Numbered from the stretch's first letter, positions 152-62,231 are shown. The stretch: 64,000 bases of DNA from an uncultured Acidobacteriota bacterium (GCA_963733935.1 CAVTEQ010000018.1:52942-116941), one strand, 5' to 3'. The notes: generated by a model from the letters alone, not told the origin. Program-made: numbers and translations.

Positions 152-1151
152 GCTTGCCGGAGTTCAAACTGCTGCGTCCGCGCAGCCTCGCCGAGGCTGT
201 TAGTTTTCTTGGCATACATGCCGAGGCGCAGATTGTCGCCGGCGGCACCGATCTCGTTCCCTCACTCAAACAGCGCCTGTTCACGCCTGCCTATGTCATC
301 GACATCCGCCGCATCTCCGAGCTGCGCGGCATCCGCGCCATTCCGGGGCAGGGAACTGAAATCGGCGCGCTCACCACGCTGACCGAGATCGAGAAGTCCG
401 ACCACATTCGTCGCGACTATCCGGTGCTGCACGAAGCTGCGAAGACCGTGGCCTCGCCCATCCTGCGCAACATGGGCACGCTCGGCGGCAACATCTGCCT
501 GGACACCCGCTGCCTGTGGTACAACCAGTCGCTCACCTGGCGGACTTCCTGCGGCTTCTGCATTAAGAAAGATGGCGATCTCTGCCACGTTGCGCCCGGC
601 GGCTCGAAGTGCTGGGCGGTCTTTTCCGGCGATACGCCTCCGGCGCTGCTCTGCCTCGATGCCGAGCTTGAGATCATTGGCCCGTCGGGCACAAGGCGTG
701 CTCTGCTGCGCGACTTCTACACCAATGTCGGCGACGCGCGCATGAAGCTGGCGAAGAACGAAATCGTCACGCGGGTGCTCCTGCCGGAGCGCACTGCCGG
801 ATACCGCGGCGTCTATCGCAAGCTGCGCCTGCGCGGATCGATCGACTATCCGCTGGCAGGCGTGGCGGTCGCGCTGAAGCGCTCCAATGGACACGTGGAG
901 GATGCCCGTGTCGCCATCACCGCGGTCGAATCCCGCACCGCTTGCTGGTTCGTGGCGCTGACAAAGAACTGCTCGGGAAGGCCGTGACCGCAGAGAATGC
1001 GGCGGCGGTCGGTGACCTTGCCGCGCGTGCCGCGAAGCCATTGACCACGTCCTCGCTTACGCCTGAGTATCGTCGCGAGATGATTCGCGTCTTCGCCAAG
1101 CGGGCGGTGCTGGAAGCAGCACGAAAGTGGGAAGTGGAAAGTGGTAAGTGA
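148..1151 (+). CDS. FAD-binding medium subunit (CoxM/XdhB-like) of a molybdopterin-dependent dehydrogenase; frame broken near 940
   Basis: ORF 148-987 carries AGGTDLVPSLK and GTLGGNIC flavoprotein motifs. The C-terminal domain (ADKELLGKAVT...TPEYRREM) continues in ORF 942-1151, shifted by one missing base. Confidence 0.8.
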
Positions 1152-1228
1152 TAAGTTGATGCTGTACGCGCACAGCCGTCGTCTCACACCCATGACTACT
1201 TACCACTTATCACTTGTCACTGGCCACT
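1125..1228. repeat. Imperfect word-hairpin, word GTGGNAAG (family W1)
   Basis: Arm aagtgggaagtggaaagtggtaagtgataagt (1125-1156) opposes acttaccacttatcacttgtcactggccact (1198-1228). Confidence 0.8.
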
Positions 1229-1232
1229 GACT

Positions 1233-2075
1233 TTGATCACTGACTGCCACATCCACATTCAGCCCATGGAGATGTTCAATCCGGGCGCGCTGGCGGCGAT
1301 GAAGCGCCAACGGCCGAACTTCGACCAGATTGTGGAATTCTGCCGCTCCCCCAAAGCGTTTCTCAGGCACCTGGACGCCTGCGGCATCGATCGCGCTGTG
1401 CTTATCAATTATGTGGCGCCGGAAGTGATCGGCTTCACAGCGGGCGTAAACACGTTCGTTGCCGATTACGTCAAGGAAGATCCGCGCCGCCTGATCCCCT
1501 GCGGCAGCCTGCATCCGCGGCACAGCACGAACTTCATGGCCGACGTGGATCACCTGCTCCGTCTCGGCATTCGCATGATCAAGATCCATCCGCCGCACCA
1601 GTTGCTCTATCCCAACGACTACCTGCACGGCGTGAAAGAACTCGAGATTCTGTATCGAGCCGCCGAGGCCAACGGTGTGCCGGTGATGGTCCACACGGGG
1701 ACATCGATCTTTCCGGGCGCGCGCAACAAGTTCGGCGACCCGATGTACGTGGACGATGTGGCCGTGGATTTTCCCCGGCTGAAGATTCTGCTGGCGCACG
1801 GCGGGCGTCCGCTGTGGATGGATACGGCATTCTTTCTGGTGCGCCGCCATCCCAACGTCTATCTCGATGTAAGTGGCATCCCGCCCAAGACGCTGTTGAA
1901 ATATTTTCCGCGGTTAGAGGAGATTGCCGCCAAGACCGTGTTCGGCACCGATTGGCCGGGGCCGGGAGTGCCGGACATCAAGCGGAACCTGGATGATTTT
2001 CGTGCCTTGGCGATTTCCGAGGTGGCGAAAGAACAAATTCTCACGAAGACGGCATTGACGTTGTGGGCGGCGTGA
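1233..2075 (+). CDS. Amidohydrolase-family (TIM-barrel metal-dependent) hydrolase
   Basis: 280-aa ORF with an N-terminal DCHIHI His pair, KIHPPHQ and LLAHGGRP motifs typical of amidohydrolase_2 proteins. Confidence 0.8.
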   Translation: MITDCHIHIQPMEMFNPGALAAMKRQRPNFDQIVEFCRSPKAFLRHLDACGIDRAVLINYVAPEVIGFTAGVNTFVADYVKEDPRRLIPCGSLHPRHSTNFMADVDHLLRLGIRMIKIHPPHQLLYPNDYLHGVKELEILYRAAEANGVPVMVHTGTSIFPGARNKFGDPMYVDDVAVDFPRLKILLAHGGRPLWMDTAFFLVRRHPNVYLDVSGIPPKTLLKYFPRLEEIAAKTVFGTDWPGPGVPDIKRNLDDFRALAISEVAKEQILTKTALTLWAA

Positions 2076-2107
2076 GCTGCCGTCTCGGAACAAAACCGAT
2101 ATTCCTC

Positions 2108-5545: not shown

Positions 5546-5734
5546 ATGAAACCGAGTGAGATCATTTTTTCAGTAGAAGAGAGCGCCGAAGGCGGCTTTG
5601 AAGCTCGGGCTTTGGGCTACTCCATCTTTACGGAAGCCGAGACATTCGACGACCTGCGCAAAATGGTGCGCGAGGCCGTGCAATGCCATTTTGAAGAACA
5701 TGAGCGGCCTGCTGTTATACGCCTGCATGTCTGA
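5546..5734 (+). CDS. Small HicB-like/UPF0150-type protein, no adjacent toxin
   Basis: 62 aa from ATG 5546: MKPSEIIFSVEESAEGGFEARALGYSIFTEAETFDDLRKMVREAVQCHFEE. The fold pattern resembles HicB N-terminal domains. Confidence 0.6.
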   Translation: MKPSEIIFSVEESAEGGFEARALGYSIFTEAETFDDLRKMVREAVQCHFEEHERPAVIRLHV

Positions 5735-5786
5735 TAGCGGTCCGGCCCGTTTTCTATCCTCCCTTGGCCGTCTACAATCTAGTGTC

Positions 5787-5813
5787 CTCCGTGTCTCTGT
5801 GTCTCCGTGGTGA
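5787..5813. repeat. Single arm of family W2 (TCTCCGTG word)
   Basis: cctccgtgtctctgtgtctccgtggtg. No complementary arm nearby. Confidence 0.7.
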
Positions 5814-5822
5814 ACCGAAATC

Positions 5823-7461
5823 ATGCCTAAACCCAAACCTCTCGTCCTCATCATTCTCGACGGCTGGGGATACGCACCGCCGTCGAAGGCCAATGCCATC
5901 TCGCTGGCGCGCAAACCCACCTACGACCAACTCTTGCGCGATTATCCCAACACGCTGATTCACACCAGCGGCCGCTACGTCGGGCTGCCCGAGGGGCAGA
6001 TGGGCAACAGCGAGGTGGGACATCTCAACATCGGCGCCGGCCGCGTCGTATATATGGACGTCACCCGCATCGACCTGATGATCGAGAACGGCGAGTTCTT
6101 CTCCAGCCCCGAGCTGCTGGCGGCCGTCAAGCACGCGCGCTCCGGCGGCCGGCGGCTGCACATCTTCGGGCTGCTCTCCGATGGAGGCGTGCACTCTTCC
6201 GAGCAGCACCTCTACGCGCTGTTGCGGATGGCCAAGCAGAACGGTGTGGAGCGCGTTTTCGTCCACTGCTTCATGGACGGGCGCGACACGATGCCCAACT
6301 CCGGCGCCGGCTACATCGAGCAGCTTCAGCAGAAGATGCGCGAGTACGGCGTGGGCAAGATCGCTTCGGTTGACGGCCGCTACTACGCCATGGACCGCGA
6401 TCGCCGCTGGGAGCGCGATAGAAAAGGCCTTCGCGGCGATGGTCGAGGGCAAAGGCGAAGGCGGCGCCTACGTCGATCCTGTGCAGGGCGTGAAAGAGTC
6501 CTACAACAAGGGCACGACCGATGAGTTCGTCTTGCCCTTCGTCTGCGTGGACAACCGCGGCGAGCCGCTCGCCCGCATCCGCGATGAGGATGCCTGCATC
6601 AACTTTAATTTCCGCGCCGACCGCGCCCGCCAGATCACCCGCGCGCTCGCCCGCAAGAGCCATCTTTCGGCCGAGGACGGACGCGAACTGCCGGGCGCTG
6701 AAGATCTCGACCGCACCATTCCCCGCGAGCGCGTCCCTGCGAATCTCCATTACTTGTGCATGACGCGCTACGACAAGCAGTTCACGCTCCCTTACGTCGT
6801 GGCACCGGAAGCGCTGTCCAACATTCTCGCCAACGTCATGGCAAACTTGCAGCTACGCAACCTGCGCGTGGCCGAGACCGAGAAGTACGCGCATGTGACC
6901 TACTTCTTCAATGGCGGCGTGGAGCAGCCGTTTCCCGGCGAGGATCGCGTGCTCGTGCCTTCGCCCAAGGTCGCCACCTATGACTTGAAGCCGGAAATGT
7001 CGGCCAGCGGCATCGCCGACGCGGTGGTCAAAGCGGTCAACGATACTGCCTTCGACGTGATCGTGGTGAACTTCGCCAACGCCGATATGGTCGGCCACTC
7101 CGGCAAGATTCCGCCAACTATCCAGGCGGTCGAAACCGTGGACGCTTGTCTCGGCCGCATCCTCACGGCGGTGCGCCAGAAAGGCGGCGCCATGTTGGTC
7201 ACCGCCGACCACGGCAACGCCGAGATGATGATCGATCCCGCGACCGGCGGCCCGCACACCGCCCACACCACGAATCCAGTGCCGTTCATCATCGTGAGCG
7301 ATCAGGACAAGAAGTTCACGCTTCGCCCCGATGGCGCGCTGCAGGATATCTCTCCAACCGTGCTGGGTATCCTCGGCATTCCGCAACCGAAAGAGATGAC
7401 AGGACATGATCTGCGAGTGTTCGGATCGGGTGATCGGGTGATCGGGTCATCGGGAGATTGA
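5823..7461 (+). CDS. gpmI: 2,3-bisphosphoglycerate-independent phosphoglycerate mutase; +1 frameshift near 6417
   Basis: The N-terminus (LIILDGWGY...[14 protein letters not shown]...[14 protein letters not shown]) is in ORF 5823-6524. It continues as [11 protein letters not shown]...ADHGNAE in ORF 6181-7461. 1639 nt = 546 codons + 1. Confidence 0.93.
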
Positions 7462-7572
7462 AGCCCCGGAGGGGCAAAATGAATTGGTTGCAATTTTCGC
7501 AGCCTCCCAGCGCATGTCTCGGTTTAATTCCTCCTAAATCACCCGATGACCCGATCACCCGATGACCCGATG
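7422..7572. repeat. Word-hairpin, word GATCGGGT (family W3), arms about 85 nt apart
   Basis: cggatcgggtgatcgggtgatcgggtcatcggg (7422-7454) opposes cacccgatgacccgatcacccgatgacccgatg (7540-7572). Confidence 0.85.
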
Positions 7573-8560
7573 AAATTACTCATTCTTATCCATCATCCCT
7601 TCGCTCTTTGGAGTGCGCCCGATTGGCTCGGCGAGCGCGTCCGCCGCGACTTCCCGCAGATCGAAGTGGACCAGCGCAACAGCTACAAGAACGTCGAGGA
7701 ACACATCCGCGACGCCGAGATTTTCTTCGGCTGGTCGCTGCGCGGAGAGCAGGTGGCGGTCGCGAAGAAGCTGCGCTGGATCCACTCCACCGCCGCCGCC
7801 GTACATCAGCTCATGTCGCCGGAGTTGCGCGCGAGCAACGTGATCGTCACCAACGCCCGCTTCGTCCACGGGCCGGTGGTCGCCGAGCATGCCGTCGCGC
7901 TCATGTTCGGTCTCGCCAAACGTCTGCACACCGCTGTGCGCTACCAGCAGCAACGAGTATGGGCGCAAGAGCAGATCGCCGGCGAGCATCCGCACCCAAG
8001 CGAACTCGCGGGTTCAACGCTGGGCCTTGTCGGCTACGGAGCTATTGGGAGTCCGATCGCCGACAGCGCCAAGGCGCTGGGGATGCGGGTGCTCGTCGTC
8101 CGTCAGCATCCGCAGAGGGAGCACGGTGCGAAAAACGGCATCGAGAGCTTCGGTCCCGACGGCCTCGATGAAGTGATCGCGCAATCCGACTTCGTGGTCC
8201 TCGCCGCTCCGCTCACCGAGAGGACGCGCCACCTCATCAATTCCGAGCGTCTTGAACGCATGAAGCCCGACGCCTACCTGGTGAACGTCTCCCGGGGAGC
8301 GTTGATCGACGAAGCCGCCCTGCTCGACACTCTGCGGAACCGCTGCATCGGCGGCGCGGCGCTCGAACGTCTTCGATCATGAGCCGCTGCCTGCCGACTC
8401 GCCGCTGTGGGAGCTGGACAACCTGCTGATCACGCCGCACACTGCCGCCACGTCGGACAAGATGTGGGAGCGCCACTACGCGCTCATCAAGGAGAACCTC
8501 CGGCGCTATCTTGCCGGCGAGCCGCTGCTGGGGCTGGTGGACAAGCAATCGGGATACTGA
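7570..8560 (+). CDS. D-isomer-specific 2-hydroxyacid dehydrogenase family protein; +1 frameshift near 8366
   Basis: Contains GLVGYGAIG (NAD site) and LVNVSRGALIDEAAL. After 8366 the expected DVFDHEPLPADSPLWELDNLLITPHTAA reads one base out of frame, with the stop at 8558-8560. Confidence 0.85.
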
Positions 8561-11750: not shown

Positions 11751-11805
11751 CGGCGTTTGTCGGCGTCGCCAGCGAGCGACGAATCAAAGATGGTAGCAGA
11801 AAAGA

Positions 11806-11927
11806 GAGTAGCGAGTACCGAGTCGCGAGTACCGAGTTACTCGCAAGAATGAGGCTCGTTGACCTCGATTTGTTGTGCTTCTACTCTTCCTGCAGAGAGA
11901 CCTACTCGGTACTCGCAACTCGCTACT
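11806..11927. repeat. Word-hairpin, word GAGTACC (family W4)
   Basis: gagtagcgagtaccgagtcgcgagtaccgagttactcgc opposes ctactcggtactcgcaactcgctact. Confidence 0.8.
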
Positions 11928-12210
11928 ATTTGTCGACGCTGATCTTGAGCGACTTCAGAAACTTCTGGTCGTTGGCGTTGATTGTGAACTCGGCTTCCCG
12001 CCGCGTGGCGGACCCACCCGTGCCGGGTTTGCTGGCGCTCTCCTCGTCGTCGTGGCGGTTGAAGCCGATCGTGGCTTCCAGTACCAGGAAGACGTCGTAG
12101 CCGCCGGCTTTGATTCTGGAGATAACTTCGGCGATGGGCTCGGATTCGGACAGGGACTCGTTGATAGCTTCGCCGAGTTCCTTCATAAGCTGCTTCAGTT
12201 TGTCGTCCAC
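11926..12210 (-). CDS. Hypothetical 94-aa protein
   Basis: GTG start at 12210 preceded by GGGGAGGG, GC3-rich. Sequence: VDDKLKQLMKELGEAINESLSESEPIAEVISRIKAGGYDVFLVLEATIGF. Confidence 0.55.
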   Translation of the reverse strand: MDDKLKQLMKELGEAINESLSESEPIAEVISRIKAGGYDVFLVLEATIGFNRHDDEESASKPGTGGSATRREAEFTINANDQKFLKSLKISVDK

Positions 12211-12347
12211 GTGCCCTCCCCTCGCCAGCGACCTCCAGCCGAGACTATCACTTTCGGCGGGCAGTTGTTTAGATGCAGGGAAGGGGCCCGAAGATAGGGA
12301 GAAACCCCGCAGCGGGGGCCGGTGGTGGGAGCTACAGAAGGGCTTGA

Positions 12348-12387
12348 ACTCCGGAGCGCGGGTCAAACTCGAACCTCACGCTCCGGA
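12348..12387 (-). terminator. 10-bp GC-rich hairpin downstream of the porin-like gene
   Basis: CTCCGGAGCG-N20-CGCTCCGGAG, 21 nt beyond the stop at 12408. No clear U tract. Confidence 0.35.
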
Positions 12388-15552: not shown

Positions 15553-15620
15553 TAGTTTCTCGTTTCTAGTTTCTCGGAAGAAGCTTCTGCCGAGAAACGA
15601 GAAACAAGGAACTAGAAACT
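15553..15620. repeat. Word-hairpin, word TTTCTCG (family W5)
   Basis: tagtttctcgtttctagtttctcgg opposes ccgagaaacgagaaacaaggaactagaaact. Confidence 0.85.
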
Positions 15621-16206: not shown

Positions 16207-16246
16207 TCGAGAAACAAGAAACGAGAAACCAGGAACTGATTTCTAG
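16207..16246. repeat. Single arm of family W5
   Basis: tcgagaaacaagaaacgagaaaccaggaactgatttctag. Confidence 0.7.
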
Positions 16247-18136: not shown

Positions 18137-18142
18137 AGGATT

Positions 18143-18237
18143 TAGTAATTGTGTAATTTGGTAATTGGGTAATCGAACCGCCACCCGCGACGCATCGCCG
18201 GTTCTCAATTACCAATTACGAAATTACCAAATTACTC
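18143..18237. repeat. Word-hairpin, word GTAATTGG (family W6)
   Basis: tagtaattgtgtaatttggtaattgggtaat opposes caattaccaattacgaaattaccaaattactc. Confidence 0.85.
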
Positions 18238-18250
18238 AATCGGTGTACCC

Positions 18251-19577
18251 ATGCGCTATCTCCCCAAATCCGACGCTGAACGCGGGCTGATGCTGCGCGA
18301 GATCGGCGTCAGCAGCATTGACGACCTGTTCGCCCCCATTCCGGCTGACTTTCGCGTCAAGGGCGATCTCAACTTGCCGCGCGCTTTCGCCGAGTCGGAA
18401 ATCGTGGACTACTTCCGCCAGCGCTCGGCGGAAAACGCAGCCGGCTATGCATCGTTCTTGGGCGCGGGGGCGTATCACCATTACCGGCCGGTGGTGATCG
18501 ATTCGCTGATTTCGCGCGGCGAATTCTTTACCGCCTACACCCCTTACCAGCCGGAGCTGGCGCAGGGAACGCTGCAGGCCATCTTCGAATTTCAGACCAT
18601 GATCTGCGAACTCACCGGCATGGAGGTGGCGAATGCCTCCATGTACGACGGCTCGACCGCCACGCCCGAGACGGTGATGATGGCGGCGCGGGTGACAGGA
18701 CGGCGCAGTGCCGTGGTCGCGCGCAGCGTGCATCCAGAGTACCGCGAGGTGCTGGCGACGTACGCGCGCCATCAGGCGGTGCCGATCACCACCATCGGCT
18801 TCCTGGAAAACGGCCGCGTGGACGTGAAGGCGCTGGAGCAGGCGGTCACGGAAGAGACCGCCTGCGTCGTCATCCAGTCGCCGAATTTCTTCGGCACCAT
18901 CGAGGACATCGCCGCCGCAGCCGACATCGCGCACCGAAAAGGGCGCGCTGCTGGTGGTCATGATCTCCGAGGCGGTTTCCCTGGGAATCGTCAAGCCTCC
19001 GGTCGAGGCTGACATCGTGGGCATGGAAGCGCAATCGTTCGGCGTCCCAGTCGGATTTGGCGGGCCCTACGCGGGCGTGATCGCCACCAAAGAAAAATTC
19101 GTGCGCCAGATGCCGGGGCGACTGGTAGGCGAGACCCACGACAAAAACGGCAAGCGCGCGTTTTGCCTCACGCTTACCACGCGCGAGCAGCACATCCGCC
19201 GCGAGAAGGCGACCTCCAACATTTGCACCAACCAGGGGCTCGTAGCGCTAATGGCAACCATCTTTATGACCGTGTACGGGCGCGAAGGGATGAAGGAGCT
19301 GGCGAAGCACAACCTGTCGAAAGCCGCCTATGCCGCCGGCGAATTCGGCAAGAGAGCGAAAGTTCTCTTCGGCGGAGCCCCGCGGTTCAATGAGTTTGTG
19401 GTCGAGACCCACGAAGATCCCAAGGCCATCAACGACCGCCTGCTACAGAAGAAGATCGTAGGCGGGCTGCCGCTCAAGAAGTTCTATCCCGAGCTGGGAA
19501 ATGCGGCGCTCTGGTGCTGCACCGAGACGACAACGCGGGCTCAGATCGACGCCGCAGTCAAAGAGGTGGCGCAATGA
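18251..19577 (+). CDS. gcvPA: Glycine dehydrogenase (decarboxylating) subunit 1; +1 frameshift near 18942
   Basis: [20 protein letters not shown]...[25 protein letters not shown] is in ORF 18251-19012. It continues as [15 protein letters not shown]...[18 protein letters not shown] in ORF 18954-19577. 1327 nt = 442 codons + 1. Confidence 0.93.
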
Positions 19578-21077
19578 GCATCCGCAAAGCCACCACCCAC
19601 GTCAATCAGAACGAAGGCCTGATCTTCGAGAAGTCATCACCGGGCAAATATGCGTGGAAGCTGCCGGAGCTGGACGTGCCGGAAGCTGATCCCGAGAAAG
19701 TGCTGGGCGGCGCGGCGCGCAGCGATCTCGGCAACATGCCCGAGGTCAGCGAGATCGAGATCATCCGCCACTTCACGCGGCTCTCCACCTGGAACTACGG
19801 TGTGGATACGGGCCTCTATCCGCTGGGCTCGTGCACCATGAAGTACAACCCACGAGTGAACGAGGTGGCAGCGCGCGTGGAAGGTCTGGCGGGCGCGCAC
19901 CCGTATCAGCCGGAGAAGATCTCGCAGGGCGCGCTGCTGGTCATGAAGGTGCTCTCCAAGTGCCTGACCGAGATCACCGGCATGGACGCGATCACGCTGC
20001 AGCCGGCGGCGGGCGCGCACGGCGAGCTGACCGGCATCCTGCTGATCCGCGCCTATCTGGAATCGAAGGGGAACCCGCGCAAGAAGATTCTGATTCCCGG
20101 ATTCGGCGCACGGTACCAATCCCGCGACGGCGGCGATTGCGGGCTACGCGGTCGAGAACCTGAAGTCGAACGCCGCCGGCATGGTGGACATTCCGTCGCT
20201 GATCGCGCAGGCGAACGAAGACGTTGCCGCGCTGATGATCACCAATCCCAACACACTCGGCGTATTCGAGCAGAACATCGTGCAGATCGCCGAGATTCTG
20301 CACTCGAAGGGCGCGCTGCTCTACATGGACGGCGCCAACATGAATGCGCTGGTCGGCAAGGCGCGCCCCGGGGAGCGCGGCGTGGACGTCATGCACATGA
20401 ACCTGCATAAGACGTTCTCCACACCGCATGGCGGCGGCGGTCCCGGTTCGGGGCCGGTGGTGTGCAAGCAGATTCTGGAGCCGTTCCTGCCCCTGCCGGT
20501 AATCGCCGTCAAGCCAGACGGCGCGCTGGGCTTCGACTATGACCGCCCGCACTCGATCGGCCGCGTGCGCGCCTTCTACGGCAACTTCGGCATGCACGTG
20601 CGCGCGCTGGCCTACATCATGGCCAACGGGCCCGACGGGCTGCGCCAGACCACCGAAGATGCCGTGCTCAACGCCAATTACATCCGCAAGAAGCTGGAAG
20701 GCCTGTACGACCTGCCTTACTCGACGCCCAGCATGCACGAGGTAGTGTTCAGCGATCGCCTGCAGGGAAAGAACGGCATCAAGACCGGCGACATCGCCAA
20801 GCGGCTCATCGATTACGGCTTCCACCCGTACACGGTCTCGTTCCCGCTGATCGTGCACGGGGCGCTGATGATCGAGCCGACGGAGAGCGAGTCCAAGGAA
20901 GAGCTGGACCTCTTCATTGATGCCATGCGCTCGATCGCCGAGGAGTGCGAGCGGGATCCCAAGCTGGTGCTGGAGGCGCCGCATACCACACGAGTCTCGC
21001 GCCTGGACGAAGTCACGGCGGCGCGCAAGCCCATCCTGCGCTGGAAGCCGAAGCAACAGCCGGCCGCGGCGGACTAA
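19574..21077 (+). CDS. gcvPB: Glycine dehydrogenase (decarboxylating) subunit 2; +1 frameshift near 20099
   Basis: ATG 19574 overlaps the gcvPA stop (ATGA). ...[12 protein letters not shown]...KILIP, then [16 protein letters not shown]...[16 protein letters not shown] reads one base out of frame in ORF 20181-21077. Confidence 0.93.
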
Positions 21078-21086: not shown

Positions 21087-21143
21087 GCCACAGAGACACG
21101 GAGACACAGAGCGGAACTGGCGAACCCTCTGTGGCTCTGTGGC
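21087..21143. repeat. Word-hairpin, word CACGGAGA (family W2)
   Basis: gccacagagacacggagacacagag opposes ctctgtggctctgtggc. Confidence 0.85.
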
Positions 21144-22901: not shown

Positions 22902-22910
22902 TCTGGCGAG

Positions 22911-23138
22911 CTACAGGTATTTTCTAAAATCATCGATATCGACCTTAGCCAGTTTGAGAATACCCCTCAGTGTCCCGGGCGCTAGCTCCGCGTGCAGCGG
23001 AACGACACAGCCTACGTCGCCAGCAGGCGTGCGCTTCTTGAGAATTACGTGACTGCCTCGCTGCCTGACCTGAACGAACCCCAGCCGTTCGAGTGCGCGT
23101 ATTGCCGCCGCGCCGGATACGCGCGGCAGCCTAGGCAT
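22911..23138 (-). CDS. hicA: HicA-family toxin (mRNA interferase)
   Basis: MPRLPRVSGAAAIRALERLGFVQVRQRGSHVILKK is the YcfA/HicA signature. It overlaps hicB by 8 nt. Confidence 0.85.
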   Translation of the reverse strand: MPRLPRVSGAAAIRALERLGFVQVRQRGSHVILKKRTPAGDVGCVVPLHAELAPGTLRGILKLAKVDIDDFRKYL

Positions 23139-23340: not shown

Positions 23341-23374
23341 ACGGCAGTATTCTAGCCACAACTTGACTCGAAGC

Positions 23375-38628: not shown

Positions 38629-38691
38629 GGCGTCTCCTTTTTAGTGACTCGTGTTAGCGGCTGGAGGCAGGATGTGCCTCTTCACACGCTG

Positions 38692-40276: not shown

Positions 40277-40303
40277 GATTCGCTCCGAGAGTCCCGCATA
40301 CGG

Positions 40304-40438
40304 GTGAAGGGGCACGACCTCCGGTCGTGCCGCAGAGGAACCAATAATTCGTGGGGCTTTTAGCCCCTGGTTTTCAGGGGCTAAAGCCCGGATTTCTCAA
40401 CCACACTAATGGCACGACCGAAGGTCGTGCCCCTTCAC
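40304..40438. repeat. Composite nested-hairpin element (family K)
   Basis: gtgaaggggcacgacc-tcc-ggtcgtgcc ... ggggcttttagcccc ... ggggctaaagccc ... ggcacgacc-gaa-ggtcgtgccccttcac. The outer parts are mutually inverted. Confidence 0.8.
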
Positions 40439-40467
40439 CTGTGCTCTTACTGTACACATCGCCCCAA

Positions 40468-46605: not shown

Positions 46606-46724
46606 GTTCGTGTCAGGGCACGACTTCACGGGCTGCTGAAAAACTTTGTCGTGAGCCGTTACGTGTCAGGGCACGACTTCAGTCGTGCCGCCAGTGCCCA
46701 AAAAACCGTGGGGCTTTAGCCCCT
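46606..46724. repeat. Family K composite element
   Basis: gtgtcagggcacgacttca occurs twice (46610, 46663), with the hairpin ggcacgacttcagtcgtgcc and ggggctttagcccc. Confidence 0.8.
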
Positions 46725-46915
46725 GCCGCTGAGTGCTCGCTTGCGCGCCCGTGATATGCCCATGCCAAGGAAACGTCTGTGAGTGAGGAATGTTTTTCGG
46801 AAAACGGAACACGCCGTCGCTATGGCTCAGATGGCGCGAGACTTGGGGGTGAGAATTTGCCGATGATTCCCGATTCTCTTGTTCTGAAATCGGAACAAGC
46901 GCGCTACTTAGCTCT

Positions 46916-50102: not shown

Positions 50103-51302
50103 ATGAACGCGAGACGTTCGTGGTACGTGCTCACGCTGGCGGCGGCGCTGGCGCTAGGCGTGGCTTCAGGCTGCACGCGGGCGCGCAACGACGCGCAGAT
50201 TGCCAACGAGGTGCAGGGCAAGATCAGCAGCGATAGCGGCGTTCCCACCAAGCAGATCACGGTGACCTCCAGTGATGGCATCGTCACGCTGACCGGCAAT
50301 GTGGGCAGCGATGCGGAGCGGCAGGCCGCCGCCAACGACGCCGCTCACGTCGAGGGCGTGAAGACGGTGGTGAACAACCTGCAAGTAGCGCCGGCCACGG
50401 CCCAGGCTGAGCCCGAGCCGGAAGCGCAGCCGGAACCATCGCGAGAGCCCGCGCGCTCACGGCGCACCAGTCCCAAGGTCTACAGCAACCGTCCCTCGAG
50501 CCCCGCACCTAGCGCTCCCGCAATGACGCCGAGCGCGCCGGCCACGACGGCCGTGGCGCCGCCTCCGCCGCCACCCCCGCCCAAGCCGGTCACCATTCCA
50601 GACGGGACCGTGCTGCAGGTGCGCATGATCGATACCATCGATTCCGGACACAACCAGCCCGGCGACCGCTTCCGTGCAACGCTGGATGCGCCCGTCACCA
50701 TTGACGATCAGGTGATCATCCCCCACGGAGCGGACATTGAAGGCCGTGTGGCGGAGCTGAAGAGCGCCGGTCACTTCGCGGGGAAACCTGCCATCGCCCT
50801 GCAGTTGACGGCGCTTTCCGTCAACGGACGCCGCTATTCGCTGCACACCAATCAGTATGCGCGTGAGGGCACCTCGCGCGGTACCAACACGGCGGAGAAG
50901 GTCGGCGGCGGAGCGGCTGTCGGCACCATCATTGGCGCGATCGCCGGCGGCGGCAAAGGAGCTGCCATTGGCGGCATCATTGGCGCAGCCGGGGGTGGCG
51001 GCGTGCAGGCTGCCACTAAAGCGCCCACGATCCACGTGCCTTCGGAGGCCTTGGTGAGCTTTACGCTCGAGAGCCCGCTTACGGTTACACCCGTAGCCAA
51101 CCTCAAGCGTAGCCGCAGCAGCCGGAGCGCCGACTCTAGAGGCCCGCAAGACGACACCAGCATGGCCGATTACAGCGACGCGCAGGACCAGCCGCCGCCG
51201 CGCAATCGGTCGAGCCGCAACCCTGACTACAACGATTCGGACCAGCAACCGCAGCCGCCATCCGATGACGATCCCAATGCGCCGGTGCTGAAGAGGAGAT
51301 GA
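50103..51302 (+). CDS. Lipoprotein with a BON domain, Pro/Ala linker and glycine-zipper C-terminal module
   Basis: MNARRSWYVLTLAAALALGVASGC lipobox. BON domain: ITVTSSDGIVTLTGNVGSDAERQAAANDAAHVEGVKTVVNNLQV. C-terminus: GGGAAVGTIIGAIAGGGKGAAIGGIIGAAGGGG. Confidence 0.8.
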   Translation: MNARRSWYVLTLAAALALGVASGCTRARNDAQIANEVQGKISSDSGVPTKQITVTSSDGIVTLTGNVGSDAERQAAANDAAHVEGVKTVVNNLQVAPATAQAEPEPEAQPEPSREPARSRRTSPKVYSNRPSSPAPSAPAMTPSAPATTAVAPPPPPPPPKPVTIPDGTVLQVRMIDTIDSGHNQPGDRFRATLDAPVTIDDQVIIPHGADIEGRVAELKSAGHFAGKPAIALQLTALSVNGRRYSLHTNQYAREGTSRGTNTAEKVGGGAAVGTIIGAIAGGGKGAAIGGIIGAAGGGGVQAATKAPTIHVPSEALVSFTLESPLTVTPVANLKRSRSSRSADSRGPQDDTSMADYSDAQDQPPPRNRSSRNPDYNDSDQQPQPPSDDDPNAPVLKRR

Positions 51303-51306
51303 AAGC

Positions 51307-51396
51307 AGTGGTAAGTGGAAAGTGACAAGTGGTATGTGTCCCGCACCTGCCACTTGCTTTTCCACTTACCACTTACCACTTTTCACTCCTCACTTC
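51307..51396. repeat. Word-hairpin family W1
   Basis: agtggtaagtggaaagtgacaagtggta opposes gccacttgcttttccacttaccacttaccacttttcac. Confidence 0.85.
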
Positions 51397-51440
51397 CGTA
51401 ATCAGCCGCGCAGGTGTTAACCCACTTATAATCAGCATTC

Positions 51441-56745: not shown

Positions 56746-56781
56746 CCGGCAAAGTGCAGTGACCGGGCAAAGTGCAGTGAC
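56746..56781. repeat. Tandem direct repeat, 2 x 18 nt (CSGGCAAAGTGCAGTGAC)
   Basis: Seen in sequence, in the 327-nt divergent intergenic region between the ACT gene and lptFG. Confidence 0.7.
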
Positions 56782-57005
56782 GGGCCTCACATCACTGCGT
56801 GCAGCCTCGAAAGACGAGTCCTGGACTGTCGAAGCACGACTCACCGATAGATAGTTGTTGCAAAATCGCCTTTATCACTAACTACCCGCCAGAGTCCCCT
56901 ACGGCGTGTTCAAGGGCATAGTTGTCCCTCACCATGAACCTGATTCCTGCACCGTGTGCCCAGCGATCTCCCGCTGAGGGGCCATTATGCTAGGCTGGCG
57001 CTAGC

Positions 57006-59338
57006 GTGCGCATCCTCACCAAGTACATCCTGCGCGAAGTGCTGTGGCATGCCCTGATCGGTACCGGGTTGTTCACCTTCGTCATCTTCATGCGGGATGT
57101 GGGACGCATCCTCGAGCTGGTGGTGCGCCACAGCGCGCCCCTGCCCAGCGTGGCGGAGATCTTTCTGTTTACGGTGCCGCAGGCGCTCACGGTGACCGTG
57201 CCCATGGGAGTGCTGGTGGGCATCCTGATCGGGCTGAGTCGGCTGGCGGCGGACAGCGAGGTCACTGCCATGCGGGCCAGCGGGCTCGGCGCGCCCATGT
57301 TCCTGAAGGTGGTTGCCCTGTTCGCCCTCGCCGCCTGGCTGCTGGCCTCTGCCAATCAGCTCCTGGTCGCGCCCCGCGCCTCCGACTCTCTGGCCCACTT
57401 GCAGGACCGCATGAAGAGCGCGCAAGCCTCGTACGAGATCCAGCCGCGCGTCTTCTATGAAGACTTCAAGAATTACGTGCTCTATGTGCAGGACGTGAGC
57501 GCTGCCCCCAACGGCGCGCTGTGGAAGGGAATCTTCCTGGCGGACATCAGCACCCCGGGCGCGCCCAAGATCACGCTGGCGCAGCGCGGCCTGGCCAGCA
57601 ATCAGTCGCCCACCCTGCTGCGGCTGCACCTGATCCACGGCACCGAGCACGACGTCGACCCCAAGACCCCGCAGCAGTATCAGATATCGACCTTCGAAGA
57701 GAGCGACATTTCCATCCCTGTTCCCGAACCGGAGACGCCGCCCGTCGGGCCGATGCCGGCGGCGCAGCAGTGGTCGCATGTATCGGGAATCCCCACTCGG
57801 GCATTGTGGCGGCTTGGCGCACGCCGATGATCCCACCGCGCGCTGGTTCGATATCGAGCTGCACCGCCGCTTCGCCCTGCCCGCCGCCTGCCTGGTGCTG
57901 GCGCTGGTGGGCATCCCGCTCGGCCTTTCGGCGAAGAAGGGTGGCAAGTCCACGGGATTCATTCTCACCATCCTGCTGGTATTCCTCTACTACTTCGCCT
58001 CGCTGACGGGGGTGGCGCTGGCGCGGCAAGGGCGCGTCTCACCGCCGGTCGGGGTGTGGATGGCCAACGTCATCTTCCTGATCGCCGGGGCGTGGCTGCT
58101 GTGGCGGGTGGACCGAATGCCCATTGAGATCGCCTCGCTGCGCGGTGTTTGGGCGGCGCTCCAGGACCGTTTTCGCGGCCACAGTGGTTACTCATCGCGC
58201 CGCGCCTTCGAGCGCGCACTCTCGCGGCGCTTCCTTAATATCCGCTTCCCGCAAATCCTCGACGATTACATCCTGCGCGACTTCCTCACCTACACCGGGC
58301 TGGTGCTGGCCACCTTCCTGGTGCTCAGCCTGGTGTTCAATTTTTTCGAGCTGCTGGGCGACATTGTCCGCAACCGCGTGCCGCTAGTGACCGTGGGCGC
58401 CTACATGATCAACGTAGTCCCCGGCATGCTCTACCTGATGACGCCGCTCAGCGTGCTCATCGCCGTGCTGGTGACCTTCGGCCTGATGCAGAAGGCCAAC
58501 GAAATGACCGCCATGAAGGCCAGCGGCATCAGCATCTACCGCGCTGCCGTGCCCATCCTGCTGCTGGCGGCGGTGCTGCCCATCGGCCTGTTCTTGTCGG
58601 ACCAATACTGGCTGCCCCAGATCAACAAGCGCCAGGACCAGCTCTGGAACGCCATCAAGGGCAAGCCGGCGCAGACCTATCTGCGTCCCGACCGCAAGTG
58701 GATCTTCGGCCAGCACTCGACGATCTACTATTACGAGTTCTTCGATCCCGACCGCGACCAGTTCGCCAGCATCTCGGTCTTCGAGTTCGATCCTGCTACC
58801 TTCGAGTTCACGCGCCGGGTGTATGCCTCACGCGCGCGCTGGTCGCCTCATCTGGACAAGTGGACCTTCGAAGGCGGCTGGCAACGCGACTTCCAGGGCC
58901 CCGCCATTCGCCAGTTTCGGACGTTCGATGTGGCTACATTCCCCGAGCTGGCCGAAGTCGCCGCCGTACTTCAAGAAAGAAATCAAGCAGTCGTCGGAGA
59001 TGAGCTACGAGGAGCTGAGCCGCTACATCCGCGACCTGCAGCAGAGCGGCTTTGACGTGGTGCGCCTGCGGGTGCAACTGCAGAAGAAGTTCGCCTTCCC
59101 GCTGATCACGTTTGTGATGGCGGTGCTGGCCATTCCGTTTGCGCTCTCCACCGGCCGGCGGGGCGCGCTGGCGGGCGTGGCTACGGCCATCGGCATTGCC
59201 GTGATGTACTGGGTGACTTCGGGACTGTTCGAGGCCATGGGCAACGTCAGCCAGTTGCCGGCCGCGCTCGCCGCCTGGGCCCCGGACGTGATCTTCGGAT
59301 TTGCGGGCGGATACTTGATTCTGAAAGTGCCGACTTAG
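57006..59338 (+). CDS. LptF/LptG-family permease, two permease modules fused in one frame; +1 frameshifts near 57817 and 58957
   Basis: Module 1: MRILTKYILREVLWHAL... Module 2: FPQILDDYILRDFLTYTGLVLATFLV... No stop or start lies between them in ORF 57778-59055. 2333 nt = 777 codons + 2. Confidence 0.85.
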
Positions 59339-59513
59339 TACCGATTTCGAGTTGCGAGTACCGGGTGCCAGATCGAGTACTCAGTTCGTGTCATCTGAGG
59401 GCGGCGCGACTGAAGCGAAGCGCAAGGAGCGCAACCGAAGGACCTGCTTTTGCGCGGTGCTCGGTACTCGCAATCGACCCGATGACCCGACTCGACCCGA
59501 TGTACTCGGTACT
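59338..59513. repeat. Word-hairpin family W4, long loop; right arm also carries W3-type words
   Basis: agtaccgatttcgagttgcgagtaccgggtgccagatcgagtactc opposes gctcggtactcgcaatcgacccgatgacccgactcgacccgatgtactcggtact. Confidence 0.75.
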
Positions 59514-59556: not shown

Positions 59557-61353
59557 ATGACTTCGGCCACCGTTCCGCCCCAGATTTTGGCTCCTCCGCA
59601 AAAGCAAAGCGTGCGCAAGAATCTGCGCCCGCTCCTTCCCTATCTTGGGAGCCATTGGCGCGGGCTGGCCTTGGGCACTCTCACCGTGCTGCTGGACAAT
59701 GGCACCTGGATCCTCTTCCCCTTAGTGCTGGGTGGGGCAATCAACAGCCTCCACGAGGGCGTCACACAGCAAAAACTGGAAGCCTACGCGGCGCTGCTGG
59801 TCGGTCTCGCCGTGGTGAAGGGTATCTTCCGCTTCCTGACACGCTGGGTGGTAATCGGCATCTCGCGCGATATTGAGTTCGATCTGCGCAACGACCTGTT
59901 TCGCCATCTGGAGAGCCTCTCCTGGTCGTATTACCAGCGCACCCGCACCGGCGACATCATGGCCCGCTCCACCAACGATCTCAATGCGGTGCGCATGTTG
60001 CTGGGGCCGGCCATCATGTACAGCGCCAACACCCTGATCTACACCATCGGCGCGCTCTACTTCATGTTCCGCATCAGCCCCAGCCTGACGGCCTGGGCGT
60101 TTCTTCCGTTGCCGGTGGTGTCTGTAGTAGTGCAGTACTTCGGCAGCAGGATTCATGAGCGCTTCGAGCGCATCCAGGCCATGTTTTCCGATATCTCAGC
60201 GCGCGCGCAGGAGAACTTCTCGGGAGTGCGGGTGGTGCGCGCCTTCGTCCAGGAGGACGCCGAAATCGCGGCCTTCGAGAACGCGAACCGCGAGTACATC
60301 CGCCGCAGCCTGAAGCTGGTACGGCTGATGGGCATGCTGTGGCCCACGCTGGAGACACTGCTGGGCGTCTCGGTAATTCTGGTGCTCTGGCTGGGCGGCC
60401 GGCAGGTGCTGGCTCACAAGATAGACATCGGAAAGTTCGTCGCGTTCAACGCCTATCTCGTGCAGCTTACCTGGCCGATGATTTCCATCGGCTGGGTGCT
60501 GAACCTGTTCCAGCGCGGCAGCGCCTCCATGGGCAGGATCAACGAGATCTTTGCCGAGCAGCCGGAAATCCGCGACCGCGTGCCGCCTGGCGCTCCGCCG
60601 GCCGAGATTCGCGGCGAGATCGAGTTCCGCAACCTTAGCTTCGCGTACAACGGCGTGCCCGTGCTCACCGACATCAGCCTGAAGGTTCCTGCGGGTGCAA
60701 GCCTGGCCGTAGTGGGCGCAACCGGGTCGGGAAAATCCACGCTGGTGAGCCTGATCCCGCGTATCTATGACGCGCCCGAGGGAAGCGTCTTGATCGACGG
60801 CCGTCCCATCACTGACTATCCGCTGGAAACTCTTCGCCGCGCCATCGGCTTCGTGCCGCAGGAGACCTTCCTGTTCAGCGACACCGTGCGCGGGAATATC
60901 GCTCTCGGCACCGAAACCGCGGGCGACGAGGACGTTCGCCGCGCCGCCGAGGCCGCCAGCATCGCCGCCGAGATCGCCGATTTTCCCGAGCAATACCAGA
61001 CGATGGTGGGAGAGCGCGGCATTACGCTCTCCGGCGGGCAAAAGCAGCGGACGGCCATCGCCCGCGCCCTCATCCGCAATCCGCGCATCCTGGTGCTCGA
61101 TGACGCGCTCTCCAGCGTCGATACCTACACCGAGGAAAAGATTCTCAACCATCTGCGTGAGCTGATGCAGGGGCGCACGACCCTCTTCATTTCGCATCGC
61201 GTCTCCACCGTGCGCAACGCCGATCGCATCGCCGTGCTGCACGGCGGGCGCATCGTCGAGCTGGGCACGCACGACGAACTCATCGCCCGCAACGGGTACT
61301 ACACCGACCTCTACAATAAGCAACTGCTCGAGGAAGAGCTCGAGACGGTGTAG
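59557..61353 (+). CDS. ABC transporter permease/ATP-binding protein (MsbA/multidrug-exporter type)
   Basis: Six-helix TMD, then Walker A GATGSGKST, LSGGQKQR and ILVLDDALS. Confidence 0.93.
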   Translation: MTSATVPPQILAPPQKQSVRKNLRPLLPYLGSHWRGLALGTLTVLLDNGTWILFPLVLGGAINSLHEGVTQQKLEAYAALLVGLAVVKGIFRFLTRWVVIGISRDIEFDLRNDLFRHLESLSWSYYQRTRTGDIMARSTNDLNAVRMLLGPAIMYSANTLIYTIGALYFMFRISPSLTAWAFLPLPVVSVVVQYFGSRIHERFERIQAMFSDISARAQENFSGVRVVRAFVQEDAEIAAFENANREYIRRSLKLVRLMGMLWPTLETLLGVSVILVLWLGGRQVLAHKIDIGKFVAFNAYLVQLTWPMISIGWVLNLFQRGSASMGRINEIFAEQPEIRDRVPPGAPPAEIRGEIEFRNLSFAYNGVPVLTDISLKVPAGASLAVVGATGSGKSTLVSLIPRIYDAPEGSVLIDGRPITDYPLETLRRAIGFVPQETFLFSDTVRGNIALGTETAGDEDVRRAAEAASIAAEIADFPEQYQTMVGERGITLSGGQKQRTAIARALIRNPRILVLDDALSSVDTYTEEKILNHLRELMQGRTTLFISHRVSTVRNADRIAVLHGGRIVELGTHDELIARNGYYTDLYNKQLLEEELETV

Positions 61354-61354
61354 G

Positions 61355-61434
61355 AATCGGATCATCGGATGATCGGGTCATCGGGTGATCGCGACACCCC
61401 GTGTTCAATGACCCGATGACCCGATCTCCCGATG
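61355..61434. repeat. Word-hairpin family W3
   Basis: aatcggatcatcggatgatcgggtcatcgggtgatc opposes atgacccgatgacccgatctcccgatg. Confidence 0.85.
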
Positions 61435-62112
61435 AAGAGGACCGTTACTCCCGAGCTTTTCGACAGCGACCGCGGCTCTGCCGCCGAGATCGCCGGTTCG
61501 CTCGCCGATCTGCGCATGTTCAATCGCTGGTTCGGCGGGGTCGCGACCACGTGCCACCTCGTGCGCCAGATCGCTCGCCGCACGGGAGCAAAAGAACTCT
61601 CGCTCCTCGATGTGGGCGGAGCATCCGGGGACGTGCCCCAGCACGTCGCGCGACGGCTCGCGCGTGAGGGCGTGCACGTTGAGTTTGTGGTTATCGACCA
61701 CTCGCCGGCACACCTGAACGGTACAAGGCACGCGGTTGCCGGTGACGCGTTGGCGCTGCCCTTTCGTGACCACAGTTTTGACCTGGTGAGCTCGTCTCTT
61801 TTCGCGCACCATCTTGAACCCGGCGAACTGGTGCGCTTTGTCAATGAGTCGCTGCGCGTGGCGCGGGTGGCGGCGCTGGTCAACGATCTGCGGCGCAGCC
61901 CGGTTCACCTCGCGCTTACCTATGCGGGGTTCGCCTTGTACCGCAGCCGGCTGACACGGCACGATGCTCCCGCCTCGGTGCGGCGGGCTTACACGCCCAA
62001 AGAAATGCTCGAATGGATGCAGGCGACGAGCGCGGCCCTGGTCGAGATGTCCAACCATTACTTGTGCCGCATGGGAGCGATCGCGTGGAAAGCGCAATCC
62101 CTCAGGGGCTGA
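61432..62112 (+). CDS. Class I SAM-dependent methyltransferase
   Basis: LLDVGGASGD motif I, ...LALPFRDHSFDLVSSSLFAHHL. Confidence 0.8.
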   Translation: MKRTVTPELFDSDRGSAAEIAGSLADLRMFNRWFGGVATTCHLVRQIARRTGAKELSLLDVGGASGDVPQHVARRLAREGVHVEFVVIDHSPAHLNGTRHAVAGDALALPFRDHSFDLVSSSLFAHHLEPGELVRFVNESLRVARVAALVNDLRRSPVHLALTYAGFALYRSRLTRHDAPASVRRAYTPKEMLEWMQATSAALVEMSNHYLCRMGAIAWKAQSLRG

Positions 62113-62231
62113 AAGCCCAGAAAACATAGCCTGCTTTAATGCAGGCCTGAAGGCCTGCTCCACCATCAGTGGACAAATGCAGCTTCGGCGCAGCTGAGAC
62201 GTAGATCCAATCACCCGATGACCCGATCTCC
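62105..62231. repeat. Cluster of mini-hairpins (family K unit, GCCTGC hairpins) plus a single W3 arm
   Basis: ggggctgaaagccc (62105-62118), gcctgc-tttaat-gcaggc, gcaggcc-tgaa-ggcctgc, and atcacccgatgacccgatctcc (62210-62231). Confidence 0.7.

Follow-up and report, generated by a model that had tools for sequence, protein, structure and literature searches.

The window analysed here is a 64,000-nt stretch, one strand, from an uncultured Acidobacteriota bacterium (GCA_963733935.1, CAVTEQ010000018.1:52942-116941), in which an earlier note had pointed out intergenic hairpins whose arms are tandem arrays of short words. Genes were called approximately, by a heuristic based on G+C at third codon positions (GC3), and 50 open reading frames (ORFs) were scanned with Pfam. 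The content is ordinary housekeeping: enolase, iPGM, the glycine-cleavage genes, methylmalonyl-CoA mutase, a fadB-thiolase-acyl-CoA dehydrogenase (ACAD) cluster and infC-rpmI-rplT-pheS-pheT, together with zapA followed by a 6S RNA gene and then lgt, LptF/G, and an MsbA-like ABC transporter. G+C is 59-65% per 4-kb step, and an Rfam scan found no rRNA gene in the window. The enolase is at most 85% identical to enolases of Terriglobales/Acidobacteriota metagenome-assembled genomes (MAGs), and a protein encoded on a MAG contig of 217 kb matches the thiolase exactly. The source is a soil acidobacterium of the Terriglobales. Between these genes stand the word hairpins, the subject of this analysis.

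Word hairpins of the window

The hairpins are real. Tandem Repeats Finder (TRF) and an inverted-repeat scan of the window recovered the described arrays in their places, giving 18 complete hairpins with arms of tandem 7-10-nt words and six half or direct arrays, 24 elements in all where about 25 had been reported. A periodicity scan found 26 periodic (6-10 nt) segments, compared with 1.07 ± 1.19, and never more than four, when the window was dinucleotide-shuffled 100 times, and every hairpin folded better than its own shuffles on both strands (z = -3.2 to -9.9; 100 dinucleotide shuffles each), so that pairing and periodicity both persisted against shuffled sequence. The arms are 17-41 nt long and 73-94% complementary, which amounts to the long terminal stem, of about 25-30 bp or more, of a cassette of the intervening-sequence (IVS) type. 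About 10 word families share this one architecture. The list of words in the earlier note proved correct, with one family overlooked (CGCCGAGA, at 26533 and 29081), and its statement that the families are unrelated in sequence does not hold for all of them: CACGGAG, CACGGAT, CGCGGAT and CGCCGAG differ by 1-2 bases. These CAC-type words, variants included, and the GATCGGGT words together cover about 11 of the 18 hairpins.

The hairpins are coupled to gene ends. In 14 of 18 cases the stop codon of the gene reading in lies within about 25 nt of the hairpin start or is overlapped by it. By the approximate gene calls, a hairpin is present in 18 of the 26 gaps that span at least 60 nt and include a gene 3' end, compared with none of the eight divergent gaps (Fisher p = 7e-4); the claim that almost every gap larger than about 60 nt holds one is therefore right for the former and wrong for the latter. 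Hairpins also separate rpmI/rplT/pheS/pheT, gcvH/gcvP and fadB/thiolase/ACAD inside essential operons, and for this reason they are not efficient terminators. Classical intrinsic terminators were rejected as an identity, in agreement with the earlier note: the stems measure 17-41 nt (compared with about 5-14 bp), U tracts are mostly missing, with T runs only after the hairpins at 38186 and 33574, and canonical hairpin-plus-T sites occur at chance frequency (20 compared with 18.7 ± 4.7 in 20-40 kb). A known Rfam RNA family was likewise rejected, as a scan at E <= 1 gave the hairpins only sub-threshold, miRNA-like chance matches.

CAC-family hairpins lie at 21087-21143 (CACAGAGA/CACGGAGA, after gcvP(B) and convergent with a Zn-ribbon gene), 23378-23440 (CACGGAT words, 5 nt past an ACAD stop codon; z = -4.6/-7.4), 25265-25332 (between thiolase and ACAD; z = -8.0), 29319-29397 (5 nt past a NUDIX stop codon and upstream of fadB; z = -8.8), 34783-34858 (downstream of pheT, with an extended base CACCCACCAC...GTGGTGGGTG; z = -7.0/-8.5) and 36995-37062 (between pheS and pheT; z = -8.3). 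A CACGGATT/CGCGGAT hairpin at 38186-38254, between rplT (L20) and pheS, is followed by TTTTT on the sense strand. Three words (CACGGAGA, CACTGAGG and CACAGAG) make up both the 5' arm at 36995-37019 and that at 25265-25289, in cyclically permuted order, which suggests that one may have been copied from the other, or both from a common 24-nt superunit. A solo CAC-family array of the 3'-arm type (TCTCCGTG x3, ending in CTCCGTGGTGAA) stands at 5786-5810, 12 nt upstream of the iPGM start.

The GATCGGGT family is represented by a hairpin directly after iPGM (7425-7571; 35-nt arms, 94% complementary, 77-nt loop; z = -7.0) and by another, with an 18-nt loop, 8 nt past the ABC-transporter stop codon (61362-61435; z = -5.6/-6.9). 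A solo array of ACCCGATG, the 3'-arm type of this family, occupies 62205-62231, and ACCCGATG words also form the inner part of a composite hairpin with outer GAGTACC words at 59337-59513 (z = -3.2). The latter starts at the stop codon of an LptF/G-family ORF (58823-59338), to which Pfam gives only PF03739 LptF_LptG and which is assigned to LptG by position.

Among the remaining families, GAAAGTG/GTGGTAA heptamers form a hairpin with arms of about 31 nt between the genes of a FAD-binding dehydrogenase subunit and an amidohydrolase (1126-1228; z = -4.1/-3.2), and GTGGTAA/GTGGAAA heptamers one upstream of a prepilin peptidase gene, overlapping the stop codon with which a BON-domain gene ends (51298-51403, bounded at 51390 in the hairpin count; z = -7.0). 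A GAGTACC/GAGTAGC hairpin at 11803-11927 (z = -4.6/-5.8) lies directly downstream of a 146-aa ORF (11926-12366, minus strand) and upstream of a glgC-like NTP-transferase gene (minus strand). GTTTCTC heptamers at 15553-15620 start at the methylmalonyl-CoA mutase stop codon, convergent with a GNAT gene; a solo CGAGAAA array of the same family (16207-16237) falls within the GNAT ORF, in an N-terminal part free of domains, or else upstream of that ORF. Octamers make up the GTAATTGG hairpin between gcvH and gcvP(A), 2 nt past the stop codon (18139-18241; z = -5.4/-6.5), and the CGCCGAGA hairpin between fadB and thiolase, which begins at the stop codon (26533-26623; z = -9.7). Two further half-arrays are direct: a 14-nt repeat, GATTCAAGCGCCGA x2.1, containing CGCCGAGA-type words (29081-29109), and 4.7 copies of AAACTTG without an inverted partner in a convergent gap (2224-2260; TRF and periodicity scan). 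A GTCGTCGGCC-type hairpin separates rpmI (L35) from rplT (38691-38762; z = -6.1/-9.5), and a hairpin of 10-nt CGCGGATTCA words (33574-33642; z = -9.9) stands 23 nt past the 3' end of the 6S RNA gene. That gene occupies 33666-33856 on the minus strand, downstream of zapA (Rfam RF00013, 54.2 bits, above the gathering score), with a promoter-like site beside it at 33895-33867.

Small-gene cassettes between word arrays in relatives

About 2 Mb of related loci, whose contigs are given by their L numbers, were scanned for widely spaced inverted arrays. Several pairs lie 385-453 nt apart. Within each such loop there is an ORF of about 120 aa, for which the family assignment is TIGR02436, 'four helix bundle protein' (PF05635, the protein of 23S-rRNA IVSs); Avd is matched weakly. 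All five four-helix-bundle ORFs in the related (enolase) loci stand between inverted word arrays, built of GATCGGGT, ATTTCAG, TTAGGGG and GACTCGG words. Their flanking inverted-repeat scores are 19.5-31.5, when a score of 19 was reached by 0.6% of 1495 random 360-nt segments, and minimum-free-energy folds of the ORF-bearing elements close a terminal stem with 35-50 pairs.

The second ORF type in relatives is GxxExxY (TIGR04256, PF13366), of the PD-(D/E)XK class. Its place is immediately past the thiolase stop codon, with CAC-family arms around it or a CAC-family hairpin on either side, in L091, L092, L109, L112, L118, L122, L131, L137, L144, L153 and twenty further contigs; the thiolase-ACAD spacer carries it between CAC-family arms in L091, L092, L122, L137, L144, L153, L191-L200 and L201-L210. 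Gene callers translate the 5' word arm as well and so lengthen these ORFs to 140-142 aa (L201-L210, P0241-P0360). The lengthened calls have repetitive N-termini and overlap the thiolase stop codon, and the conserved protein measures about 120-124 aa.

In the loci compared, the cassette arms of relatives are thus shown to use the same words as the window hairpins, and two of these hairpins can be matched to particular cassettes. Window 7410-7585 aligned end to end with the cassettes of L020/L005 except for an internal deletion of about 320 nt (DNA alignment A2), and the 77-nt loop of hairpin 7425-7571 retains the last 45 nt or so of the four-helix-bundle (TIGR02436) ORF. This 3'-end remnant (7478-7522, plus strand) is 80-87% identical over 15 aa, with tblastn E values of 8e-5 against the loop set and 0.005 against the whole window. 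Judged by this alignment, hairpin 7425-7571 is a deletion derivative of a four-helix-bundle cassette. Words and position identify hairpin 25265-25332 as the orthologue, without an ORF, of the GxxExxY cassette that many Terriglobales carry at the thiolase-ACAD spacer. The other 17 loops of the window are too short for an ORF. Three tblastn matches at 59440-59496 were considered as an ORF remnant and treated as noise (E of about 0.07-0.09).

HicAB was considered as a third cassette type and was not found to be general: the ORFs beside arrays at 5546-5734 and 22902-23370 have no Pfam match, and HicB between fadB and thiolase in L201-L210 is without arms. The first of these ORFs (62 aa, HicB-like by eye) lies upstream of the solo array at 5786-5810. 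Near the second stands a solo CACGGATCA array at 22871-22895, where 23 nt, GAAGCCACGGATCACACGGATCA, duplicate the 5' arm at about 23375-23397, and this direct duplication (22871-23397) brackets a minus-strand segment of about 480 nt with the ORFs at 22902-23370. We read the segment as HicB/HicA-like from its sequence and from the contexts in relatives; ORF 22992-23324 is without a Pfam match. L084 and L085 carry this small cassette too, beside a CAC-family half-arm after the thiolase gene.

Cassettes on plasmids of other phyla

Six four-helix-bundle and six GxxExxY ORF loci were taken from PLSDB plasmids, five phyla in all. Nostoc and Calothrix dominate the four-helix-bundle matches in PLSDB. 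Tandem heptamers flank all six four-helix-bundle ORFs, which come from four phyla, and are inverted in five: Calothrix (GGGTGTA/TACACCC), Stanieria (AGAAGGC/CCTTCTG), Nostoc (GGGAGTA/TACTCCC), Azospirillum (GACGGAG/CTCTGTC) and Riemerella (GGTTTAA/TTAAACC). In the Pseudanabaena galeata plasmid pPg_01 (L213, 45868-47030), the ORF stands between cas6 and cas4 and is flanked by direct arrays, with 16 copies of AAAGCTA upstream and about 13 of AAAGCCA downstream. CAC-type words flank four of the six plasmid GxxExxY ORFs. In Bacteroides finegoldii the arms are TTCACCACAGAGGACGCAGAGGACACGGAGG...CTCTGTGACCTCTGTGTCCTCTGTGGTGAA, of the CACAGAGG type and nearly the window's own words; Bernardetia has CACAGAGA words, Gemmatirosa CGCAGAGG words, and Sphingomonas CGCGAAGG words around an ORF between fabD and fabG. 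CAC-type words go with GxxExxY ORFs in Acidobacteriota, Bacteroidota, Gemmatimonadota and Alphaproteobacteria. Homologues found number more than 7,600 for the four-helix-bundle protein (close ones) and more than 7,800 for GxxExxY.

Turnover of the arms

The same ORF and arms occur at more than one place. A four-helix-bundle ORF 85-87% identical to that of L005, with GATCGGGT arms, was found at a second locus, unrelated to the first, with a CpxP-like LTXXQ gene on one side and a response-regulator gene on the other; both further ORF sets there also lie between word arrays. One cassette was found in a divergent gap. In L171, an in-frame GATCGGGT hairpin (480-596) adds about 31-39 aa (IGSSGDRVIGPS...SPDEPITRSPD) to the linker between the transmembrane and nucleotide-binding domains of an ABC transporter, and the window orthologue (59557-61353) is without it. 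The ABC-transporter region of L171 was not accepted as the same locus as the window's, since the neighbours differ (LptF/G in the window). For GxxExxY, look-ups for further loci returned the thiolase-ACAD locus only, so that the copies found are orthologues.

Arms change by whole words. Contigs with an identical four-helix-bundle protein carry five compared with four GATCGGGT words. The comparison of orthologous spacers that the earlier note had proposed gave both outcomes: in L167 (96% thiolase identity) the CGCCGAGA word is kept in a hairpin one word shorter in its 3' arm, whereas in another relative, at 95% thiolase identity, the fadB-thiolase spacer has GATCGGG remnants in place of CGCCGAGA and the thiolase-ACAD hairpin is down to about one word. 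From these comparisons, orthologous spacers turn over quickly. Furthermore, the arms stay complementary through the change of words (CACAGAGG/CCTCTGTG, CACGAAGG/CCTTCGTG, CACGGAAG/CTTCCGTG and CGCAGAGG/CCTCTGCG). At the outermost word pair of 16 orthologous hairpins (alignment A1), 90% of cells are paired and eight of 11 pairs show the compensatory changes that had been looked for; double-change cells number 26, compared with 10.1 ± 2.3, a value reached by none of 500 shuffles. Orthologous hairpins without an ORF have loops of 9-101 nt that show no sequence relationship to one another.

Origin of the word hairpins

Taken together, these observations suggest that the window hairpins are probably ORF-less relics ('solo stems') of hairpin-bounded, IVS-like and apparently selfish small-gene cassettes. 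A complete cassette consists of two inverted arrays, each of 2-5 tandem 7-10-nt words, around a loop of about 360-400 nt with one small ORF. The ORF encodes either a four-helix-bundle protein (TIGR02436/PF05635, the 'S23p' ORF of 23S-rRNA IVSs, distantly related to the diversity-generating-retroelement protein Avd) or GxxExxY (TIGR04256/PF13366, PD-(D/E)XK fold). For the remaining families (GTGGTAA, GAGTACC, GTTTCTC, GTAATTGG and GTCGTCGGCC), the shared architecture would point to the same origin. The elements would be co-transcribed with host genes, and their 25-40-bp stems may be cut by RNase III, by analogy with S23p-bearing 23S IVSs, or may simply shield the 3' end that lies upstream, and each of these roles would account for their toleration within operons. 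The word periodicity may arise by replication slippage and be kept because the stem is lengthened or maintained, or because repeated binding sites are supplied for the cassette protein. The common generating process proposed in the earlier note is borne out by the gain and loss of whole words; its addition, 'rather than one mobile sequence', gains no support from these data, in which the architecture is that of the two ends of small-ORF cassettes: such arms surround four-helix-bundle or GxxExxY ORFs in relatives and in other phyla, one ORF with its arms recurs at two unrelated loci, and a solo hairpin interrupts a gene in frame in one relative.

Several observations weigh against this origin. 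Only two of the 18 window hairpins have direct homology to ORF-bearing cassettes, tblastn found no significant ORF remnant in the other hairpin loops, and the window holds no intact four-helix-bundle or GxxExxY gene. Inspection revealed neither consistent target-site duplications nor defined element ends (a GATTTC direct repeat flanks hairpin 25265-25332 and none of the others), and neither protein family is a known transposase. Sense-strand stem mismatches comprise 11 G-T, nine A-C and 25 others, without an excess of G-U over A-C; taken with the equal folding of the two strands, this gives no support to selection acting on the RNA. The sample of related loci consists of two gene neighbourhoods and a handful of plasmids, and the anchors of alignment A1 were picked by hand. 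Finally, the data allow equally that ORFs invaded the loops of pre-existing hairpins.

This last order of events belongs to an account that we consider unlikely overall, in which the hairpins are host-made 3'-end or intercistronic stem-loops of the terminator, attenuator or mRNA-stabiliser type, grown by word slippage and templated correction between arms, and small ORFs later entered their loops as safe sites. Such stem-loops would fit the tight coupling to stop codons and the empty divergent gaps, the hairpin after the 6S RNA gene, the lack of enrichment of canonical terminators, the whole-word indels and arm covariation, the unrelated loops of ORF-less orthologues, and the absence of an ORF remnant from most loops. 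On the other hand, independent hairpins would not be expected to show the phylum-spanning pairing of ORF and word (CAC words with GxxExxY; heptamers with four-helix-bundle ORFs in four phyla), nor the same ORF and arms at unrelated loci, a hairpin inside a coding sequence (L171) or a cassette in a divergent gap, and the hairpins of rpmI-rplT-pheS-pheT, having no U tracts, speak against termination. Mobilisation in trans by a Y1 transposase (of the RAYT or TIRYT type) or another transposase, with the ORFs as passengers, is an improbable explanation in our view. It would make the hairpins non-autonomous elements like repetitive extragenic palindromes (REPs) or MITEs (miniature inverted-repeat transposable elements), in keeping with several multi-copy palindromic families in REP-like positions in one genome, with the in-frame intragenic copy in L171, and with the distinct group of Y1 transposases associated with terminal inverted repeats in Acidobacteria (PMC3733652). 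However, inspection of the 18 hairpins revealed neither a single consensus nor a conserved GTAG/CGTC tag, the number of tandem words in an arm varies, and the lack of target-site duplications counts here too; mobilisation in trans also leaves the phylum-spanning association of ORF and arm unexplained. No transposase was found among the 50 window ORFs, a result of Pfam scans without a further RAYT/TIRYT search and confined to 64 kb, so that the rest of the genome may differ. A separate, conventional REP-like family in the window (GGCACGAC..GTCGTGCC) fits this model better.

A function at the DNA level, as repeated sites for a nucleoid or regulatory protein or as G-quadruplex- or cruciform-forming simple sequence repeats (SSRs) like the Xanthomonas GGGAATC arrays, appears very improbable. 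Both strands fold equally and there is no G-U signature, the 5' arm is the G-rich array in 14 of 15 window cases, with a convergent arrangement like that of Xanthomonas (PMC4692102), and the GATCGGGT arrays fit the G3N5 G-quadruplex pattern. Nevertheless, most words, GTAATTGG, GTTTCTC, GAGTACC and CACGGAGA among them, are without G tracts, the unrelated words are too many for one binding protein, and periods of 7-10 nt keep no constant helical phase. The G-rich 5' arm breaks down as a rule in the 2 Mb of related loci (34 compared with 19) and was dropped. Two further identities do not fit. As MITEs the elements have inverted arms, but inspection found no consistent flanking direct repeats and the ORF-bearing relatives encode no known transposase; as integron attC sites they lack a GTTRRRY-type core in the arms on inspection, and they are flanked by housekeeping genes instead of an array of cassettes.

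Comparison with known elements

Searches of the open-access literature yielded neither an account of these hairpins in Acidobacteria nor any general association of four-helix-bundle or GxxExxY ORFs with tandem-word arms. The closest characterised element is the S23p-bearing 23S-rRNA IVS of Coxiella and Leptospira (PMC4990558). In Coxiella, the IVS contains an S23p ORF, a 28-bp terminal stem and tandem GACAGAT heptamers in two to three copies among strains, and is excised by RNase III (PMC4990558). Like the cassettes of relatives, the 23S IVS has a PF05635/TIGR02436 ORF in its loop, is about 430 nt long, and ends in terminal inverted repeats that form a stem of about 28 bp. Its heptamers lie at the 5' end, with the 5' RNase III site at the first repeat, and their number varies among strains; tandem heptamers with copy-number variation are equally present in the stems studied here. 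Its ORF decays as the RNA stem is kept, which resembles the solo stems. In contrast to 23S IVSs, which interrupt helix 25 or 45 of 23S rRNA, the window elements follow protein-coding genes or 6S RNA or lie between the genes of an operon; all window copies are ORF-less, many word families occur in one genome, and a second ORF type, GxxExxY, shares the architecture. RNase III excision has been shown experimentally for the 23S IVS and may act on the window elements.

The closest described sequence pattern is that of the Xanthomonas GGGAATC heptamers, which form convergent pairs near gene 3' ends and were treated together with the short tandemly repeated repetitive (STRR) sequences and GGGGA(C/T)T heptamers of cyanobacteria by Rehm et al. 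(2015; PMC4692102). The GGGAATC repeats are intergenic tandem heptamers that lie a mean of 28 nt from the upstream ORF's 3' end, with 70-75 convergent inverted pairs per genome, the G-rich array first, and a length that varies between species (PMC4692102); convergent arrays are likewise found in the window. The differences are that Xanthomonas and STRR repeats use one word per genome, compared with about 10 families in the window, and were read as G-quadruplex SSRs, reported as not associated with mobile elements and without a link to ORFs (PMC4692102). GGG tracts are confined to the GATCGGGT family among the word families of the window, so that the G-tract feature of the Xanthomonas type is absent from the others. 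From the dominance of Nostoc and Calothrix among the plasmid matches and from the heptamer flanks there, we infer that STRR/Xanthomonas-type heptamers may be linked to four-helix-bundle ORFs.

Direct TAACTGA heptamers upstream of start codons are known from Beggiatoaceae and cyanobacteria (MacGregor 2015, PMC4679880). They share with the window elements the tandem intergenic heptamers, but they are direct and upstream of genes (PMC4679880), whereas the window elements are mostly inverted and downstream. L168 and L169 carry direct TAACTGG/TAACTGA-like and AGCTAAG arrays ending just before start codons. Direct heptamer arrays that end at the thiolase start codon (GTCAACT GATAACT GGTAACT GACAACT..., and AGCTAAA AGCCAAG AGCTAAG) were seen at about 5950-6000 in L168, 5960-6000 in L169/L170 and 9970-10000 in L082/L166; of the two, the former is similar to the TAACTGA repeats.

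REPs and the bacterial interspersed mosaic elements (BIMEs) of enterobacteria and pseudomonads resemble the window hairpins as multi-copy imperfect palindromes after or between operon genes, with several families per genome and proposed roles in mRNA stabilisation or attenuation. REPs, however, measure 20-40 nt, follow one consensus, carry a GTAG/CGTC tag and owe their mobility to RAYTs, whereas the arms here are words of variable number without a common tag and the associated ORFs are not Y1 transposases; the earlier note was correct in setting the hairpins apart from single-consensus REP/BIME elements. Rickettsia palindromic elements (RPEs), reportedly described by Ogata and colleagues in 2000, can lie in frame inside protein-coding genes. 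The GATCGGGT hairpin in the L171 ABC transporter is such an in-frame palindrome, and no intragenic hairpin copy was seen in the window itself. RPEs differ in being 100-150 nt long with a single consensus, and in having neither tandem-word arms nor an ORF-bearing form.

Other features of the window

The REP-like family mentioned above occurs at 40300-40442, about 46630-46750 and about 2110-2125, as small hairpins GGCACGAC(N4-5)GTCGTGCC with GGGGCTTTAGCCCC / GGGGCTGAAGCCCC. At 40300-40442 a 32-nt, 94% inverted repeat surrounds two GGGGCT..AGCCCC hairpins, distinct from the word hairpins. This family is a better candidate than the word hairpins for elements of a Y1 transposase (RAYT/TIRYT). An 18-nt tandem repeat, GGCAAAGTGCAGTGACCG x2.2 with 95% matches, lies in a divergent intergenic gap at 56748-56785; it is not a word hairpin and may be an operator. 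In addition, overlapping ORFs in different frames split iPGM (5823-7461), gcvP (18251-21077) and LptF/LptG (57006-59338), which points to indel errors of a long-read MAG assembly or to pseudogenes. Because all three are frameshifted, the window assembly probably carries indel errors; the related long-read contigs L084 and L085 show the same gene fragmentation.

Significance

A wider proposal, which we put forward tentatively and hold to be rather doubtful, is that tandem-word hairpins serve in cis as the ends of mobile small-gene cassettes, a widespread and so far unrecognised class with S23p/Avd-like or GxxExxY cargo. Each protein would recognise its own repeated words, with GxxExxY keeping CACAGAGG-type words across phyla, and ORF-less derivatives would account for much of the excess of 7-nt SSRs in prokaryotes (cyanobacterial STRR, Xanthomonas GGGAATC, 23S-IVS heptamers and the structures in the 3' UTRs of Terriglobales operons). 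Three old puzzles may then share one answer: the role of S23p ORFs and IVS stems, the place of heptanucleotide repeats as the commonest long bacterial SSRs, and the nature of STRR and GGGAATC-type repeats. Should word hairpins prove to be the ends of cassettes, a testable cis partner would be gained for two very large families of proteins that have no assigned function. Genome annotators, whose gene callers now translate arms into ORF N-termini, would be able to recognise the elements, and much of the intergenic structure of soil Acidobacteriota would be parasitic or exapted, not designed. The hairpins inside essential operons (rpmI-rplT-pheST, gcv and beta-oxidation) must be read through or processed, and they therefore offer a way into RNA processing in this phylum, for which transcript-level data are nearly lacking.

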